A DNA stretch of 64,000 bases from Nannocystis bainbridge (lineage in GTDB: Bacteria > Myxococcota_A > Polyangia > Nannocystales > Nannocystaceae), in NCBI RefSeq assembly GCF_028368995.1, contig NZ_JAQNDL010000001.1, positions 1,632,001-1,696,000 of the forward strand, read 5' to 3'. The notes below the pieces were generated by a model, which made no database searches, was not told the origin of the DNA, and saw only the letters and a program-made list of their open reading frames with translations. Of the stretch, positions 26,728 to 31,423 are shown piece after piece (the stretch's first letter is position 1; each line of letters starts with the position of its first letter). Position numbers and translations under genes: made by a program.

Positions 26728-28011
26728 ATGCGAGACGAGAGTGAACGTGAGGACCACGGAAAGCTGTTCGTGACGAGCAGGTGTTGCGGCGCGGCGACGT
26801 GTCGCAACTTTGCGCCCGAACTCCTGGGCGAGGTGGCGACGGCGGGCGCCGTCCGTGACGGGCATCGGCTCGCTGTGTTGCCCGGGTCCTACGAGGATGG
26901 TGCCTTCACGGGGGTGCTGCGACAGCCGCACAGCGAGGAGGACCTGATCGCCGCGCGCACCGCAGTCGCGGCCTGCCCGGTCGGCGCCATCAAGCTCCTG
27001 CGTGGTGCCTCGCGGGTGCGCCGCGGCGCGTTGGGATCGCCCTGGCGCGGGTATCCCCGCCCCATCGAGGACAACGTGTGGATCGTCGGGCCTCCGTCCA
27101 TGAAGAACATCGGCGCCACGACTTACTTCATCGAGCGCGACGGCGGCGGCGTGTTGATCGACCCGCCACGACCGAGCGAGGCGCTGTTCCGCTGGCTCGC
27201 GGACCACGGCGGCGTCCGGTGGCTGTTCCTGACGCACCGCGACCACGCCCACCACCACGCCGAGATCGCCGCCCGCTTCCCCGATTGCCGCCGGCTCATC
27301 GGCGCAGCCGACGTGAACCTCCGCGAGAACAGCTTCCTCGCGACGACCGGCGACGTCGAGATCAAGCTCGGCAGCGAGCTTCGTCCGTGCACCCTCGAAG
27401 GACAGCCGCTCTCGGAAGCAGAGGCCCGACAGGCCGAACTCGTGGTGCTGCCTCAACCGGGACACACCGCAGGATCGATCTGCCTGCTGTACCGCGGTCG
27501 CTTCCTGTTCACCGGCGACCACCTCGCCTGGTCGCGCGTCCTCGGCCACATCGTGGCGTTCCGGGTGCAGTGCTGGGAGGACTGGGAGCGCCAGACCCAC
27601 TCCGTCCGTTATCTCGCCGCGGCCGCGGAGGCGGGCTGGCTGCGATTCACGTGGATCCTCCCCGGCCACGGAGAGTGGCAGCGTCTCCCGAGCGACGGCA
27701 GCGCGGCCGAGACAGCCGCGGCGCTGCGCCGCACGGTCGAGTGGATGGAGCGGCAGCCGAAGGGCCACATGCGGGCGATCCACTGGACCCCGTTCATCAT
27801 GGCCCGGTTGAAGCCGAAGAGCGCGCTGGGCCGCCTGGTGCGCGCCATCGGCCGCGGGAGCGACCTCTGGGTGTTGCCGCGTGACGTGTGGAGCTCGTTG
27901 CCCGCGCACGATCGTCGCCGCCTCGAAGCGGCGGTTCGCCGGCTTCGCGTGCTCGGGACCGTCGTGCTAGCAATCGCGGCGTTGATCGTGTGGTTCGTGG
28001 GTCGCAGATGA
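26728..28011 (+). CDS. Ferredoxin-MBL-fold metallohydrolase fusion with C-terminal TM helix
   Basis: CCGAATCRNFAPE...ACPVGAI ferredoxin; LTHRDH, PGHTAGS, FTGDHL, ILPGHG; AGGAG SD. Confidence 0.85.
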   Translation: MRDESEREDHGKLFVTSRCCGAATCRNFAPELLGEVATAGAVRDGHRLAVLPGSYEDGAFTGVLRQPHSEEDLIAARTAVAACPVGAIKLLRGASRVRRGALGSPWRGYPRPIEDNVWIVGPPSMKNIGATTYFIERDGGGVLIDPPRPSEALFRWLADHGGVRWLFLTHRDHAHHHAEIAARFPDCRRLIGAADVNLRENSFLATTGDVEIKLGSELRPCTLEGQPLSEAEARQAELVVLPQPGHTAGSICLLYRGRFLFTGDHLAWSRVLGHIVAFRVQCWEDWERQTHSVRYLAAAAEAGWLRFTWILPGHGEWQRLPSDGSAAETAAALRRTVEWMERQPKGHMRAIHWTPFIMARLKPKSALGRLVRAIGRGSDLWVLPRDVWSSLPAHDRRRLEAAVRRLRVLGTVVLAIAALIVWFVGRR

Positions 28012-28085
28012 TTCGTGACCCACGACCCACGCGACTCAGAGCCACCTGCAATTCGGCCCGGCGAGCGACAGGCCGGCCGCCGACA

Positions 28086-28109
28086 TGACCTGTCTTGAAG
28101 GTCAGGTCG
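28086..28109. repeat. Variant 14-bp-period element (CCTG/CAGG cores)
   Basis: gacctgtcttgaaggtcaggtc; cores at 28089 and 28103; between convergent genes. Confidence 0.45.
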
Positions 28110-28139
28110 GCGACCTCGCCGACGCGGCAGTCGCCGCGC

Positions 28140-30347
28140 TCACCCGGTCGTCTCGGCCGAGGCCGCGACGACCTGTGCGCGTGCGTACTCGAGCACCATT
28201 GCGTTGTCGGTGCGCAGCGCCCACTCCGCGGCGAGCACCGGAGTCGCCGCCCAGCGCTCCGCGGCGTGATCGACCAGGCGCGGCCATGTCGCCCCGCCCG
28301 CCCGCACGAAGCGCTCGACCAACTGCTCGAGCGCCGGCCGCCCGAAGCAGCCGAGGAACATCGCCAGGTCGACCGAGGGATCGGTCACCCGCGCCTCCGT
28401 CCAGTCGAGGATCCCGACCACGCTCCCGTCTGTCTCGAGGAGCATGTGCCCCGGGTGCAGGTCCCCGTGCACCAGCGCGACGTGCTGCGGCCACATCGTA
28501 TCGTCGGCGAGCCAGCGCTGCCAGCGCTGCCACACCGCCTCCGAGGGCTGCAGCGCCTCGCGGGTCGCGTCCATCGACCGCGACAGCGCCGCGCGCACCT
28601 CTGCGATCGTCGTCGTCGGCGCGCCCGCGCGGCTCGCCGTCTCCGGCGCGATCGACTGCAACGCCGCCAGCGCCCGCGCGAACGACTCGAGGAACGCCTC
28701 GCAGGGCGCCGCTGGATCGAGGATGTTCCACCGCGGGCCCTCCGGCGTCACCGTCACTGCCGGCGTACCGGAGAGCCGCGGGTACGCGATCACGTCGGGT
28801 GCGTGCACCCGCCAGTCGGGCGCGGCCACCGGCAGGCGCGGGCGCACCAGCCGGAGCACCCGCGCCTCCACGTAGGTCGACGCCGTCACCTCGAGGCGAC
28901 GCGGCGTCCGCACGATCCACGGCGTGCCCGCCTCGTCGCGCGCGTGCACGACCAGGAAATCGAGCCCCATGCGATCGAAGTCGGCGTCCTCGGCCTGCAG
29001 CTCGAGCCCGTGCCGGCGGACGACCGCCAGCAGCTCCGACGGGCTGGTGATCGGCCGCACCGTCGACAGCAGGCCGCGCCAGCGCTCGAGCGCAGCCGGC
29101 TGCGCGCGCACCCGAAGCAGCGTCCCGGCCTCGGTGTAATTCTCCGCGAGCACGCGGGCGTGCGCGCGCACCTCCCCGAGCAGATGCCCGTCCGTGAAGG
29201 GCACCTCGAGCACATCGTCGACCTGTGTCGCGTCGAACGCCTCGATCAGCGCCGCGCGCAGGCGTGCGACGTCCGCGGGGTCGTGCGCGCAGACCTGCAG
29301 CGCCGCCGGCAGCTCCTCGGCCAGCGCCGCGCGCGTCGCCGCGTCGACCCGGTCGATCTTGTTGAAGATCACCAGCGAGGGCACCGCCGCCGCGCCGATC
29401 GTCGCCAGCGCCTCGCGGGTCACCGCGAGCTGCGTGCGCCACTGCAGATCCGACGCATCGACGACGACGAGCAGGAGCCCCGCGTCGCGCGCCTCGGCGA
29501 GGGTCGCGTGGAACGACGCGACCAGCTCGTGCGGCAATTCGCGGATGAAGCCGACCGTGTCCGACACCAGGATCCGCGGCGCCGTCTCCGGCGAGAGCGC
29601 CCGCACCGTGGTGTCGAGGGTCGCGAAGAGCCGGTCCTCGACCAGCACTTCACTCCCGGTCAGCGCGCGCATCAGCGACGACTTGCCAGCGTTGGTGTAG
29701 CCGACCAGCGCCGCGCGAGGCTGATCCTTGCGGCGCGCCCGCTGCGTCTCCTCGGCGGCGCGCAGGCCCGCGAGCTCGCGGCGCAGCCCGGCGATCCGTT
29801 CACGGAGCTCTCGCTTCTTCAGGGTCACGTTGCTGTGACCGCGCTCGCCCCGGCCGCCGCCGCCGCCCTCGCGCCCGCCGAGCGACCTGTCCTCGCGGAC
29901 ACGCGGGAGCGCGTGCGTGAGCGCGGCGATCTCGACCTCGAGCTGCGCGACCCGGGTCCGCGCGTGTCGCTCGAAGATCCGGAGGATCACGCTCGCGCGG
30001 TCGATCACCTCGACGCCCGCGAGCGCCTCCTCGAGGGCGCGGAGCTGGACGGGGCTGCGCGAGTCGCTGACGACGAGGAGGAGCTGCTCCTCCTCGGCGT
30101 CACCGCGGACCTCGGCGACGCGCGCCGCGAGCTCCGCGAGCTTGCCCTCGCCGATCGACGGATCGGCGGTCCGGTGGCGCTGGATCACCGAGGCGACGAC
30201 GCGGATCCCGAGCTGGGCGAGCAGGTTCTCGAGCTCGCTCATGGCCGCCTGCAAGGACGCTTCGGTGTCGCCGGGGAACTGCCGGCCGAGCACGACGGCC
30301 CGCGGCGTGGGGCGCACGGTGGATGGATGCCTGGAATGTTTGGTCAT
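28140..30347 (-). CDS. hflX-mph: HflX GTPase fused to macrolide 2'-phosphotransferase (Mph)
   Basis: N-terminal ~430 aa: IDRASVILRIFERHART, GYTNAGKS, FATLDT, DTVGFI, NKID. C-terminal ~300 aa: RHGL, MGLDF, WIVRTPRR, WQRWL, HGDLHPGH, ILDWTEARVTDP. AGGAG SD. Confidence 0.9.
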   Translation of the reverse strand: MTKHSRHPSTVRPTPRAVVLGRQFPGDTEASLQAAMSELENLLAQLGIRVVASVIQRHRTADPSIGEGKLAELAARVAEVRGDAEEEQLLLVVSDSRSPVQLRALEEALAGVEVIDRASVILRIFERHARTRVAQLEVEIAALTHALPRVREDRSLGGREGGGGGRGERGHSNVTLKKRELRERIAGLRRELAGLRAAEETQRARRKDQPRAALVGYTNAGKSSLMRALTGSEVLVEDRLFATLDTTVRALSPETAPRILVSDTVGFIRELPHELVASFHATLAEARDAGLLLVVVDASDLQWRTQLAVTREALATIGAAAVPSLVIFNKIDRVDAATRAALAEELPAALQVCAHDPADVARLRAALIEAFDATQVDDVLEVPFTDGHLLGEVRAHARVLAENYTEAGTLLRVRAQPAALERWRGLLSTVRPITSPSELLAVVRRHGLELQAEDADFDRMGLDFLVVHARDEAGTPWIVRTPRRLEVTASTYVEARVLRLVRPRLPVAAPDWRVHAPDVIAYPRLSGTPAVTVTPEGPRWNILDPAAPCEAFLESFARALAALQSIAPETASRAGAPTTTIAEVRAALSRSMDATREALQPSEAVWQRWQRWLADDTMWPQHVALVHGDLHPGHMLLETDGSVVGILDWTEARVTDPSVDLAMFLGCFGRPALEQLVERFVRAGGATWPRLVDHAAERWAATPVLAAEWALRTDNAMVLEYARAQVVAASAETTG

Positions 30348-30524
30348 ACGAAGGACTCCTGCGCTCGCGGCCCGTAGGCCCGAGCGAGCTGGGAAGCCCG
30401 TGCGCGCGGCTCATGTGCCCGGCGCGGCGAGACGACGTCTCGACGCGACTGCTTCTTCCGGCGGCATGAGACGCCGCGCCCGGGCATTCCGTGGGACTGA
30501 AAGGACGGAGATGCGGGCACGACG

Positions 30525-30595
30525 CCGCAGCACTCGCACTCGCACCGTGCGCGCCGGATCTGCCGGAACACGCGGTCTGCGAGCGGGTACTGCGG
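30525..30595 (-). promoter_or_regulatory. Long leader hairpin (putative attenuator)
   Basis: On the minus strand ccgcagtac..ctcgca..accg pairs with cggt..tgcgag..gtgctgcgg, starting 3 nt after the leader ORF stop. Confidence 0.6.
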
Positions 30596-30598
30596 AGC

Positions 30599-30625
30599 TC
30601 AGCGCAGGCGGATGAAGAAAACCAT
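30599..30625 (-). CDS. Putative macrolide-sensing leader peptide MVFFIRLR
   Basis: ATG GTT TTC TTC ATC CGC CTG CGC TGA about 250 nt upstream of hflX-mph; ends in the RLR arrest motif. Confidence 0.7.
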   Translation of the reverse strand: MVFFIRLR

Positions 30626-30634
30626 GTCGCGGCC

Positions 30635-30664
30635 AGAATGCCACCACTCGCCCCCGCCGCGCAA
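30635..30664 (-). promoter_or_regulatory. sigma70-like promoter for the leader/hflX-mph transcript
   Basis: TTGCGC-18nt-CATTCT with TGn extension, 9 nt before the leader ATG. Confidence 0.5.
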
Positions 30665-30743
30665 GCGCCTTGTGTCGTCCCCCTGTCCTTCGCGGCGAAA
30701 CACCGCGAACGCGCGGGCGGCCAGCGGGCCGAAGCAGAGAGCG

Positions 30744-31211
30744 TCACTCGATGTCGACTCGCAGGATCGTCGCCTGGCCGTCGCGCTCGATGGCGAAGCG
30801 GCTGGTGCCCGCGCTCCGCAGGTGCTCGAAGGCCGCCTCGACGTCGGCGACGTCGACCACGGGGGCGTCATCGACCGCCGTGAACAGGTCGCCGTTCTTG
30901 AGGCCGACGAGCCCTGGCAGGCTGCCCGCGCGCAGGCCGTAGACGAAGACGCCGCGAGGGACGCCGTCGTCGAGGAAGGGGATCAGCCGGGCCTGCTTTC
31001 GCACGGGCAGCGCGTTGACGGCGAGCGTGTCGACGAATCGTTGATCGAGGGTGCACCGGACGTCGCGGCAGCGCGCGAGCAGTGAGACATCGCCCATCTG
31101 GGCGGCGGCGTCAGCGGACGGATCGGCGCCGGAGATGAGGAAGAACAGCACGCCGGCGCAGGAGAGGCCGGCGCAGAACGAACCGAGAGCGGAGCGGAAG
31201 GAATTGCCCAT
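30744..31211 (-). CDS. Small GspC-type PDZ domain protein with N-terminal TM/signal
   Basis: ARLIPFLDDGVPRGVFVYGLRAGSLPGLVGLKNGDLFTAVD...IERDGQ. Confidence 0.75.
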   Translation of the reverse strand: MGNSFRSALGSFCAGLSCAGVLFFLISGADPSADAAAQMGDVSLLARCRDVRCTLDQRFVDTLAVNALPVRKQARLIPFLDDGVPRGVFVYGLRAGSLPGLVGLKNGDLFTAVDDAPVVDVADVEAAFEHLRSAGTSRFAIERDGQATILRVDIE

Positions 31212-31223
31212 GCGGCGAGGCTT

Positions 31224-31239
31224 AGCAATTCCGGTGCCA
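31224..31239 (-). promoter_or_regulatory. sigma54 -24/-12 promoter
   Basis: TGGCAC-CGGAA-TTGCT on the minus strand, 12 nt before the ATG. Confidence 0.75.
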
Positions 31240-31375
31240 CCATCACGCAGGCCCATCTGCCGAGCGAATCGCCTGCAGACGCCGTGAGAAGTCGACATTT
31301 TGTCATGCGCACGCCGTCGCCCGCGACGAAGCGAGCTCGACGCCCCGCCGGCGAGCCGGCGGAGAGAGTCTTTCA

Positions 31376-31399
31376 GGACATGTCCCGAAGAACATGCCC
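31376..31399. repeat. 14-bp-period CATG element (2 units)
   Basis: ggacatgtcccgaagaacatgccc; CATG at 31379 and 31393. Confidence 0.75.
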
Positions 31400-31423
31400 C
31401 GAGAGCCACCCGGCGAGCACGAT

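Follow-up and report, generated by a model that had tools for sequence, protein, structure and literature searches.

The 64,000-nucleotide (nt) stretch of Nannocystis bainbridge DNA analysed here (assembly GCF_028368995.1, contig NZ_JAQNDL010000001.1, positions 1,632,001 to 1,696,000; hereafter the window) carries on its minus strand, at window positions 28140-30347, one unbroken open reading frame (ORF) that starts with ATG and encodes 735 amino acids (aa) plus a stop. A sequence-only reading, which left the strand unstated, had described this ORF as a single polypeptide joining the ribosome-associated GTPase HflX to a macrolide phosphotransferase (Mph). The single frame is confirmed, and its component parts are as follows.

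28140-30347, minus strand: hflX-mph fused coding sequence, 735 aa plus stop (ORF calling, Pfam, NCBIfam, database homologs).
29067-30347, minus strand: HflX module, residues 1-427, comprising the N-terminal domain, the helical NTD2, the G domain and the C-terminal domain (TIGR03156, PRK11058, 8vkw, superposition with Listeria HflXr).
29838-29891, minus strand: NTD2 loop, which reaches the peptidyl-transferase centre (PTC), residues 153-170, with the family-specific GGGGGRGERGHSNV replacing the canonical GGIGxRGPGETxLE (alignments).
29232-29720, minus strand: G domain, residues ~210-372, with the G1-G4 motifs (Pfam, motif conservation in fused homologs).
29040-29066, minus strand: short interdomain linker STVRPITSP, residues 428-436 (junction alignment with few gaps in most homologs; predicted local distance difference test score, pLDDT, about 76).
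28143-29039, minus strand: Mph-type macrolide 2'-phosphotransferase domain, residues 437-735 (match to MphA 5igh, template modelling (TM) score 0.87-0.91).
28446-28469, minus strand: catalytic loop HGDLHPGH, residues 627-634, aligned with HGDLYVGH of MphA and HGDVHAGH of MphB.
28392-28406, minus strand: DWTEA metal-binding motif, residues 648-652 (D648 and W649 at >=90% conservation).

By sequence and structure comparison, the N-terminal half is a complete HflX and the C-terminal half is an Mph-family kinase. Pfam divides the 735-aa protein into GTP-bdg_N (residues 34-125), GTP-bdg_M (128-206), MMR_HSR1 (212-330) and APH (460-691, E 3.7e-34). The NCBIfam HflX equivalog TIGR03156 scores 304.6 bits over residues 18-369 against a cutoff of 216.75, and PRK11058 aligns to residues 34-416. 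The four-part HflX architecture and all the nucleotide-binding motifs (G1 GYTNAGKS, 216-223; G2 FATLDT, 241-246; G3 DTVG, 263-266; G4 NKID, 329-332) are present, which bears out the earlier assignment of the first ~430 residues to a full HflX. Among solved structures, the N-terminal 429 residues match mycobacterial HflX best (8vkw, E 2.6e-66, residues 16-419), followed by Listeria HflXr (E 2.6e-57) and Escherichia coli HflX (6e-51), the C-terminal domain being included in the match.

The motifs quoted for the second half were likewise all found (RHGL, 444-447; GLDF, 461-464; WIVRTPRR, 477-484; TDP, 655-657; and the two listed above). The C-terminal 306 residues align with residues 8-300 of the 301 of MphA 5igh (E 1e-62). 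Other Mph structure entries score from 6e-60 to 8e-50, for eight Mph sequences in all, and the next kinase family, capreomycin phosphotransferase, reaches only 3e-6. Every named Mph model (A, B, C, E, F, L and M) aligns end to end with residues ~435-727. The kinase domain is 40% identical to Mph(A) and 32-40% identical to characterised Mphs. An AlphaFold2 model built with 58 fused homologs as input has a mean pLDDT of 86.3 and a predicted TM score (pTM) of 0.77 for the whole chain; pLDDT falls below 50 solely at residues 1-11 and in the NTD2 loop (153-170). In Foldseek searches with this model, the HflX half superposes on 50S-bound Listeria HflXr (8a57_D) with a target-normalised TM score of 0.79, and on ribosome-bound HflX chains in general with scores of 0.72-0.79. 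The kinase half matches macrolide-bound Mph structures at TM 0.87-0.91 and a root-mean-square deviation of 2.1-2.5 Å, and APH(2'') at 0.72-0.78. No solved structure chain in the Foldseek search spans both halves.

The in-frame junction had been placed at about 29050, with no stop, ATG or Shine-Dalgarno (SD) sequence. This was borne out: the domain boundary lies at residues ~428-436 (window ~29040-29066), and the junction DNA contains neither a stop nor an ATG nor an SD-like run of purines, its single GTG being the Val codon of TVRP. The junction is also found in independent sequence. A soil-metagenome contig (X1 record 4) spans positions 29024-29186 with 0 differences and 0 gaps. The metagenome contigs that match the window are short and fragmentary, and the peak in their depth at 29602-29773 is explained by cross-mapping in the conserved G domain.

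The fusion recurs widely. The same four-domain architecture was found in 69 of the 120 best database proteins (716-766 aa, 38-91% identity), all of which are annotated as 'GTPase HflX' alone; Chondromyces apiculatus, Sandaracinus amylolyticus, Lujinxingia and Bradymonadaceae are among their named sources. The fused frame is present at 756-757 codons in five named Nannocystis species, with a kinase part 87-91% identical to that of the window, and the Chondromyces apiculatus genome likewise carries the fused gene. Full-length fused matches were present in 10 of 401 sampled genomes of the phylum, with two candidates scored per genome, and seven full-length fused clusters stood among the best 150 from a search of 1.84 billion representatives clustered at 50% identity.

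Both halves appear to be under constraint, with motif conservation consistent with purifying selection. In alignments of 58-70 fused homologs at 38-91% identity, G216, Y217, T218, N219, G221, K222, S223, D263, T264, G266, K330 and D332 of the GTPase are invariant, as are the loop residues G162-G165 and R166 (58 fused proteins). In the kinase, H627 is invariant, G628 and H634 are at least 90% conserved, and Asp648/Trp649 and Asp656 are invariant or nearly so. A subclade comprising P0054-P0067, and probably also P0070 and P0072, has HGELYAAH in place of HGDLHPGH, together with a linker about 20 residues longer; its kinase may be altered or inactive, with the HflX motifs intact. A separate observation concerns Nannocystis pusilla, for which the database protein P0025, a 410-aa entry annotated as 'phosphotransferase / macrolide 2'-phosphotransferase', covers only the C-terminal 56% of the query, at 87% identity. 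The DNA of N. pusilla Na p29 (L042) holds an intact 757-codon fused frame, and the short form probably reflects a truncated gene call or a difference between strains.

Upstream of the fused gene lies a 397-nt intergenic region with the following features.

30635-30664, minus strand: possible promoter, TTGCGC (30664-30659), an 18-nt spacer and CATTCT (30640-30635), suggested by the conservation boundary in six Nannocystis genomes.
30599-30625, minus strand: leader mini-ORF ATG GTT TTC TTC ATC CGC CTG CGC TGA, encoding MVFFIRLR-stop, with a '+x+' arrest motif directly before the stop codon.
30348-30598, minus strand: structured, highly conserved leader RNA that separates the mini-ORF from the main start codon (folding, six-genome identity).
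30391-30399, minus strand: GGGCTTCCC, predicted anti-SD arm pairing with the SD region (consensus structure, columns 266-274 with 303-312).
30356-30360, minus strand: AGGAG as SD sequence for the fused gene, 8 nt ahead of its ATG (sequence reading).

The mini-ORF is AT-rich, has eight codons and lies 278 nt upstream of the fused gene. A mini-ORF ending in RLR-stop precedes 16 of the 18 unique fused loci with available upstream DNA (the window, L039-L044, L049, L057 (=L010), L064, L080 (=L011), L084 (=L012), L093 (=L013), L014-L017 and L019), and one ending in +x+-stop precedes 17 of them. Examples of the leader peptides are MFAFIRLR, MVKSIRLR, MIDCFHIRLR, MRLFYYIRLR and MWTLLYARLR; L049 carries the +x+ variant MFLFMRFR. 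Over 80 loci, 44 RLR-stop mini-ORFs were counted in 81 kb of upstream zones versus nine in 1247 kb of background (all other sequence, both strands), where they are thus about 75-fold rarer.

The same motif is known from macrolide-resistance leaders. Duval 2018 describes control of Listeria hflXr by an RLR ORF and attenuation, and calls RLR a signature of macrolide-resistance leaders. In Beckert 2021, ribosomes stall on ErmDL at Arg6-Leu7-Arg8 with Leu in the P site, the motif being critical for telithromycin. The mefA leader peptide MefAL, given in the MsrD preprint as MTASMRLR, also has eight residues and ends RLR-stop. The link of the fused protein to macrolides is much stronger for this conserved RLR-stop leader than it was from the coding sequence.

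The leader is conserved beyond its peptide. Across six Nannocystis genomes its 275-278 nt are 92.6% identical at the nucleotide level, equal to the coding sequence, versus 54% for the 120 nt before the mini-ORF. The predicted RNA fold has a minimum free energy of -158.2 kcal/mol (z -3.09; none of 100 shuffled sequences folds equally well). A GGAG-type SD stands 6-9 nt before the ATG in all 12 leaders examined, and the unpaired probability of the SD zone is 0.2-0.3. Rfam at permissive thresholds over 30200-30900 returned only sub-threshold, chance-level matches (CC3513, E 0.084; P4, E 0.41). The proposed -35/-10 pair, and the hairpins at the 3' end of the gene described below, were read from conservation boundaries alone, and a consensus scan called neither. 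Two relatives have sigma-70-like promoters that match at 10 of 12 positions (TTGACA, 18 nt, then TATTTT or TATCGT; L011 2570-2599 and L013 3993-4022, minus strand). These lie ~80-90 nt upstream of the mini-ORF, consistent with a mini-ORF inside the transcribed leader.

Among phylum HflX genes, the leader goes with one type of NTD2 loop. The consensus GGGGRGxRG[H/N][T/S]N defines an HflX subfamily whose members may be fused or unfused; the RLR leader was found at 11 of 15 unique loci with this loop versus 0 of 22 with canonical-type loops. The genome of the window has three HflX proteins above the TIGR03156 cutoff. The fused gene is the third paralog, and the other two have canonical-type loops and are without an RLR leader. 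The best-scoring of the three (L001 817-2565; contig 1, ~81.3-83.1 kb; 434 bits, 582 aa) has an N-terminal extension of ~190 residues before the HflX domains and a canonical GGIGGRGPGETKLE loop. The leader peptides MATASLRLR (L025), MIFYTRLR (L036) and MLNHTSTRLR (L018, cut by the contig end) precede HflX genes that have the special loop but are unfused, and no mph adjoins the unfused special-loop hflX genes in the ~1.5-kb flanks of L018-L038. These sequences suggest a Myxococcota subfamily of HflX that is drug-induced and does not depend on the kinase.

The kinase, too, occurs separately behind the same type of leader. An RLR-stop leader precedes 33 of 68 standalone mph-like genes (L045-L118), with peptides such as VAFSRLR in Sorangium (GTG start), MAFIRLR in Polyangium, MAFVRLR in Labilithrix and MTASIRLR in Kofleriaceae, MGIASMRLR in Brevibacillus, and MVIHYIRLR and MGIGYIRLR in Paenibacillus. 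MTASIRLR, MTAAIRLR and MTAFIRLR resemble MefAL, and a MefAL-like sensor looks widespread among environmental macrolide kinases. The genome of the window itself has a standalone mph-like gene (L151; contig 5, 57002-57904, minus strand) that is 62% identical to fused residues 431-731, and it has its own leader, MFAFIRLR-stop, about 110 nt before the start of the frame. Both modules thus occur separately under the RLR sensor, and the fusion sets both behind one copy of it.

We examined the history of the two halves in separate trees. In the HflX-half tree, which holds Myxococcota-type relatives only and has no HflXr sequences among its members, fused proteins and 39 unfused ones form a clade with a support of 100 that excludes the two other paralogs of the genome. 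In the kinase tree, the domain from the window falls within a clade of Myxococcota that mixes fused with standalone forms, and a second fused group (P0069 and the HGE subclade) groups with clinical Mph(A) and Mph(E). Residues 449-730 of P0069 are 57% identical (162/282) to Mph(A) (L119:374-1276), its sister in both trees with a support of 99-100; sampling was biased to relatives of the window, so Mph(A) may have closer standalone relatives. The approximately unbiased (AU) test rejected placing the 29 fused kinase domains together in one clade (p-AU 8.6e-06, a cost of 246 log-likelihood units), and the HflX halves of the second fused group are likewise separate from the rest. The same test on 24 'main' fused domains as one clade gave p 0.031, a value not to be over-read for a group named after the tree had been seen. 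At least two independent fusions are the simplest reading of these trees, with domain replacement and long-branch effects as alternatives, and more than one origin would point to repeated selection for the HflX-Mph pairing. The trees are unrooted and have no outgroup, and both an ancestral fusion with later fissions and the reverse order fit them.

The fused gene and its leader form a compact unit in unrelated surroundings. In the six Nannocystis genomes, homology is confined to a ~2.6-kb block (window ~28074-30669; 89.6-93.9% nucleotide identity to L039-L043) that runs from ~40 nt before the mini-ORF, with blastn boundaries at 30665-30669, to ~66 nt after the stop. In no pair can its flanks be aligned, the flanks of L039-L044 contain none of four neighbour proteins, and around the block no convincing terminal repeats and no mobility genes were identified. 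The end of the block corresponds to one further feature.

28074-28139, minus strand: conserved 3' tail whose two short hairpins may form a terminator; the homology between species stops at this point.

The neighbours are a protein with Fer4 and a metallo-beta-lactamase fold, a Ser/Thr kinase with TPR repeats and three ORFs without a Pfam match, and none of them bears signs of a resistance island or a biosynthetic cluster. The first, a convergent downstream gene (26728-28011, plus strand), encodes 427 aa with a 4Fe-4S ferredoxin-like segment, a metallo-beta-lactamase-fold domain and a C-terminal hydrophobic tail, and is not conserved beside the fused gene in other Nannocystis genomes.

Several known systems resemble parts of this locus. 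HflXr of Listeria monocytogenes (lmo0762, with the rli80 attenuator) is likewise an extra paralog beside a housekeeping HflX, has an upstream RLR small ORF and shares the four-domain fold; ribosome splitting under macrolides is a further, presumed common trait. It differs in its Firmicute host, in having no kinase domain and in an NTD2 loop two residues longer. Its leader ORF has 14 aa and a demonstrated intrinsic terminator, whereas that of the window has 8 aa ending RLR-stop, with no terminator found in the leader. Mycobacterial HflX (M. smegmatis, M. abscessus), the best structural match of the N-terminal half and implicated in macrolide resistance according to Koller 2022, is a single housekeeping copy without a kinase domain, and has an 8-residue loop insertion that is lacking here. 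With Mph(A), (B), (C), (E) and MphH, the C-terminal half shares an end-to-end alignment, the HGDxxxxH and DW(T/S)E motifs and the fold. The known Mphs are plasmid-borne and unfused, whereas the domain described here is chromosomal in Myxococcota and joined to HflX; Pawlowski 2018 describes Mph enzymes as GTP-dependent 2'-OH kinases. MefAL (MTASMRLR) and ErmDL (MTHSMRLRFPTLNQ) are likewise short upstream ORFs with an R-L-R '+x+' motif, but they regulate efflux or methylase genes in Firmicutes, and their N-terminal residues differ from those of the myxobacterial peptides.

The closest functional parallel is operonic. In plasmid sequences, mph(C) directly follows msr(A) and mph(E) directly follows msr(E), both msr genes encoding ABC-F ribosome-protection proteins. 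The msr(E)-mph(E) and msr(A)-mph(C) operons thus show the same pairing of a ribosome-acting factor with an Mph kinase, co-transcribed, except that the factor is an ABC-F ATPase rather than an HflX and that there are two proteins rather than one chain. AAC(6')-Ie-APH(2'')-Ia is a natural fusion of two aminoglycoside resistance activities, in which both halves modify the drug. Unlike it, the HflX-Mph protein pairs a half that acts on the target, the ribosome, with a half that acts on the drug.

Taken together, these comparisons make it probable, in our judgement, that hflX-mph encodes a chromosomal, macrolide-induced bifunctional resistance protein analogous to the msr-mph operons. In the mechanism that we propose, the mini-ORF that opens the 278-nt leader, MVFFIRLR-stop, would serve as drug sensor. 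A macrolide or ketolide in the exit tunnel would arrest the ribosome on it, Leu occupying the P site and Arg the A site as on ErmDL, and the arrest would remodel the structured leader and turn on the downstream gene by transcriptional or translational attenuation. Residues 1-427, an HflX-type GTPase of a Myxococcota-specific subfamily, would by homology bind the 50S subunit or the 70S ribosome, split drug-stalled ribosomes and bring the NTD2 loop to the PTC. Residues 437-735 would phosphorylate the 2'-OH of desosamine, with GTP as donor, leaving the drug unable to rebind. The fusion would ensure 1:1 co-production of the two activities and place the kinase where ribosomes are freed.

A number of observations weigh against this interpretation. 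For the kinase, the sequence-only reading of a full Mph-type enzyme holds at the level of the family and no further: the named Mph models score 158.8-213 bits, and none reaches its NCBIfam cutoff of 500-650. These are allele-level 'exception' models, and because the scores lie so far under their cutoffs the domain is best called a relative within the Mph family rather than any named Mph. Substrate range, according to Pawlowski 2018, is unreadable from the contact residues. Glu replaces the catalytic Asp in the subclade, at least 13 of 70 fused proteins, and kinase activity may thus not hold across the whole family. For the HflX half, the proposed resistance role like that of HflXr stands in part. 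The NTD2 loop has a distinctive sequence, but it lacks the extension; in phmmer alignments it has the length of the E. coli HflX loop (5ady/7yla), two residues shorter than that of 8a57 HflXr and eight shorter than that of mycobacterial HflX, and Koller 2022 associates resistance HflXr with longer, extended NTD2 loops. Resistance-type HflXr in the sense of Duval 2018 and Koller 2022 also has a conserved Arg or Gln at the loop tip (R149 in Listeria HflXr); R166 of the fused protein aligns near the Arg of E. coli LRG, in a loop where the alignment is gapped and the model disordered.

The regulatory part of the proposal meets counter-evidence of its own. One fused locus, L057 (on the same contig as L010), is without any +x+ leader. 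Compensatory changes occur at only 2 of 115 predicted leader pairs, the six Nannocystis leaders being too similar to one another. A consensus promoter and terminator scan over 27900-31400 found no intrinsic terminator in the leader of the window (0 sites), and scans of lower-GC relatives gave a single weak candidate of 5 bp, in L013, with nothing in L011 or L012. A model in which the stalled ribosome unmasks the SD was tried and rejected: a footprint constraint failed to open the SD in 10 of 12 leaders, leaving its accessibility unchanged in 6 of 6 Nannocystis leaders and raising it by at least 0.1 in L011 and L013 only. Simple translational attenuation is thus not supported by these folding calculations. 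Finally, the Listeria RLR leader responds to lincomycin too (Duval 2018), so the inducer need not be a macrolide.

How the two halves work together bears on the value of the fusion. They may act independently, the fusion merely fixing co-expression and tethering adding nothing, which we consider quite possible though short of probable. Standalone mph with the same leader is common (33/68 loci), with a second copy in this very genome; unfused special-loop HflX genes with a leader exist (L025, L036); and fused and unfused forms interleave in both trees, so that fission is apparently tolerated. In published 50S complexes (Koller 2022), moreover, the C-terminal domain of HflX lies at the base of the uL11 stalk, a long way from the tunnel. 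The apparent existence of more than one origin, the persistence of a short, low-gap linker at 38-91% identity and a whole-chain pTM of 0.77, which hints at a defined arrangement, speak for something beyond such linkage, and neither the first two nor the last is decisive.

The alternative in which tethering matters is a coupled 'eject-and-inactivate' machine, whose HflX half would split the ribosome and loosen the macrolide while the tethered kinase phosphorylates it at release. We put this forward tentatively and regard it as somewhat unlikely. Koller 2022 proposes that HflXr releases the drug and that a downstream sink is needed. Were the coupled machine real, the tethered kinase would be the missing sink postulated there, the independent fusion origins would reflect selection for proximity, and the special-loop HflX proteins, from a Gram-negative phylum, would be a hitherto unrecognised family of ribosome-rescue resistance factors induced by macrolides.

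It is also conceivable, if improbable, that the kinase alone confers resistance and that the HflX half is a paralog for general stress or ribosome recycling, or serves for targeting or regulation. The NTD2 loop is short, like that of the non-resistance HflX proteins in Koller 2022, and HflX-mediated macrolide resistance is weak where measurements exist, at 64-128 mg/L erythromycin versus 512-2048 by other mechanisms (PMC5776109). Against this stand the unfused HflX genes of the subfamily, which lie under an RLR leader with no mph within 1.5 kb, so that the HflX module is apparently drug-regulated by itself; the loop sequence is moreover subfamily-specific and invariant, and the GTPase motifs are fully conserved.

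Still harder to sustain, and in our view very improbable, is a substrate or inducer other than a classical macrolide, whether another amino-sugar natural product that binds the tunnel or the PTC or a kinase target that is no drug at all. With 32-40% identity to characterised Mphs and scores below all named-family cutoffs, specificity is unpredictable from sequence, and the leader leaves some room, the +x+ motif being most critical for ketolides (Beckert 2021) and the Listeria leader responding to lincomycin. The full-length agreement in fold and motifs with macrolide-bound Mph structures argues for a macrolide, as do the far weaker matches to other kinase families (capreomycin phosphotransferase, 3e-6; APH(2''), TM 0.72-0.78) and the regulation of known macrolide genes by the same leader type (Duval 2018, MsrD preprint). 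An artefact, whether a sequencing or assembly error that joined two adjacent genes or a pseudogene in decay, has practically no chance of being the explanation, being excluded by the recurrence of the same frame in database proteins, six Nannocystis genomes and dozens of metagenomic clusters and by the identical independent junction contig.

The components of hflX-mph are each known. What appears new is the single-chain architecture together with the RLR-controlled, loop-defined HflX subfamily of Myxococcota: in keeping with the sequence-only reading, which knew of no such fusion, neither was found in full-text literature searches or in the texts of the most relevant papers, with supplements and subscription journals outside the coverage. 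Whether HflX-mediated macrolide resistance reflects ribosome recycling alone or active drug release that needs a downstream sink is debated. A fusion kept over deep divergence, apparently with multiple origins, and placed behind an RLR sensor of the Listeria hflXr type provides 'Rosetta-stone' evidence that both activities belong to one pathway, and offers a single protein in which to test their coupling.

These genes may also matter for the resistome. Environmental mph genes appear to share a MefAL-like leader widely, and with one fused kinase domain 57% identical to clinical Mph(A), they would belong to a reservoir in the environment that could give rise to mobile macrolide kinases. Because the fused genes are annotated for their GTPase half, name-based resistome screens may overlook them. 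With the resistance role proposed here, Myxococcota would join Firmicutes and Actinobacteria as hosts of drug-induced HflX resistance factors.

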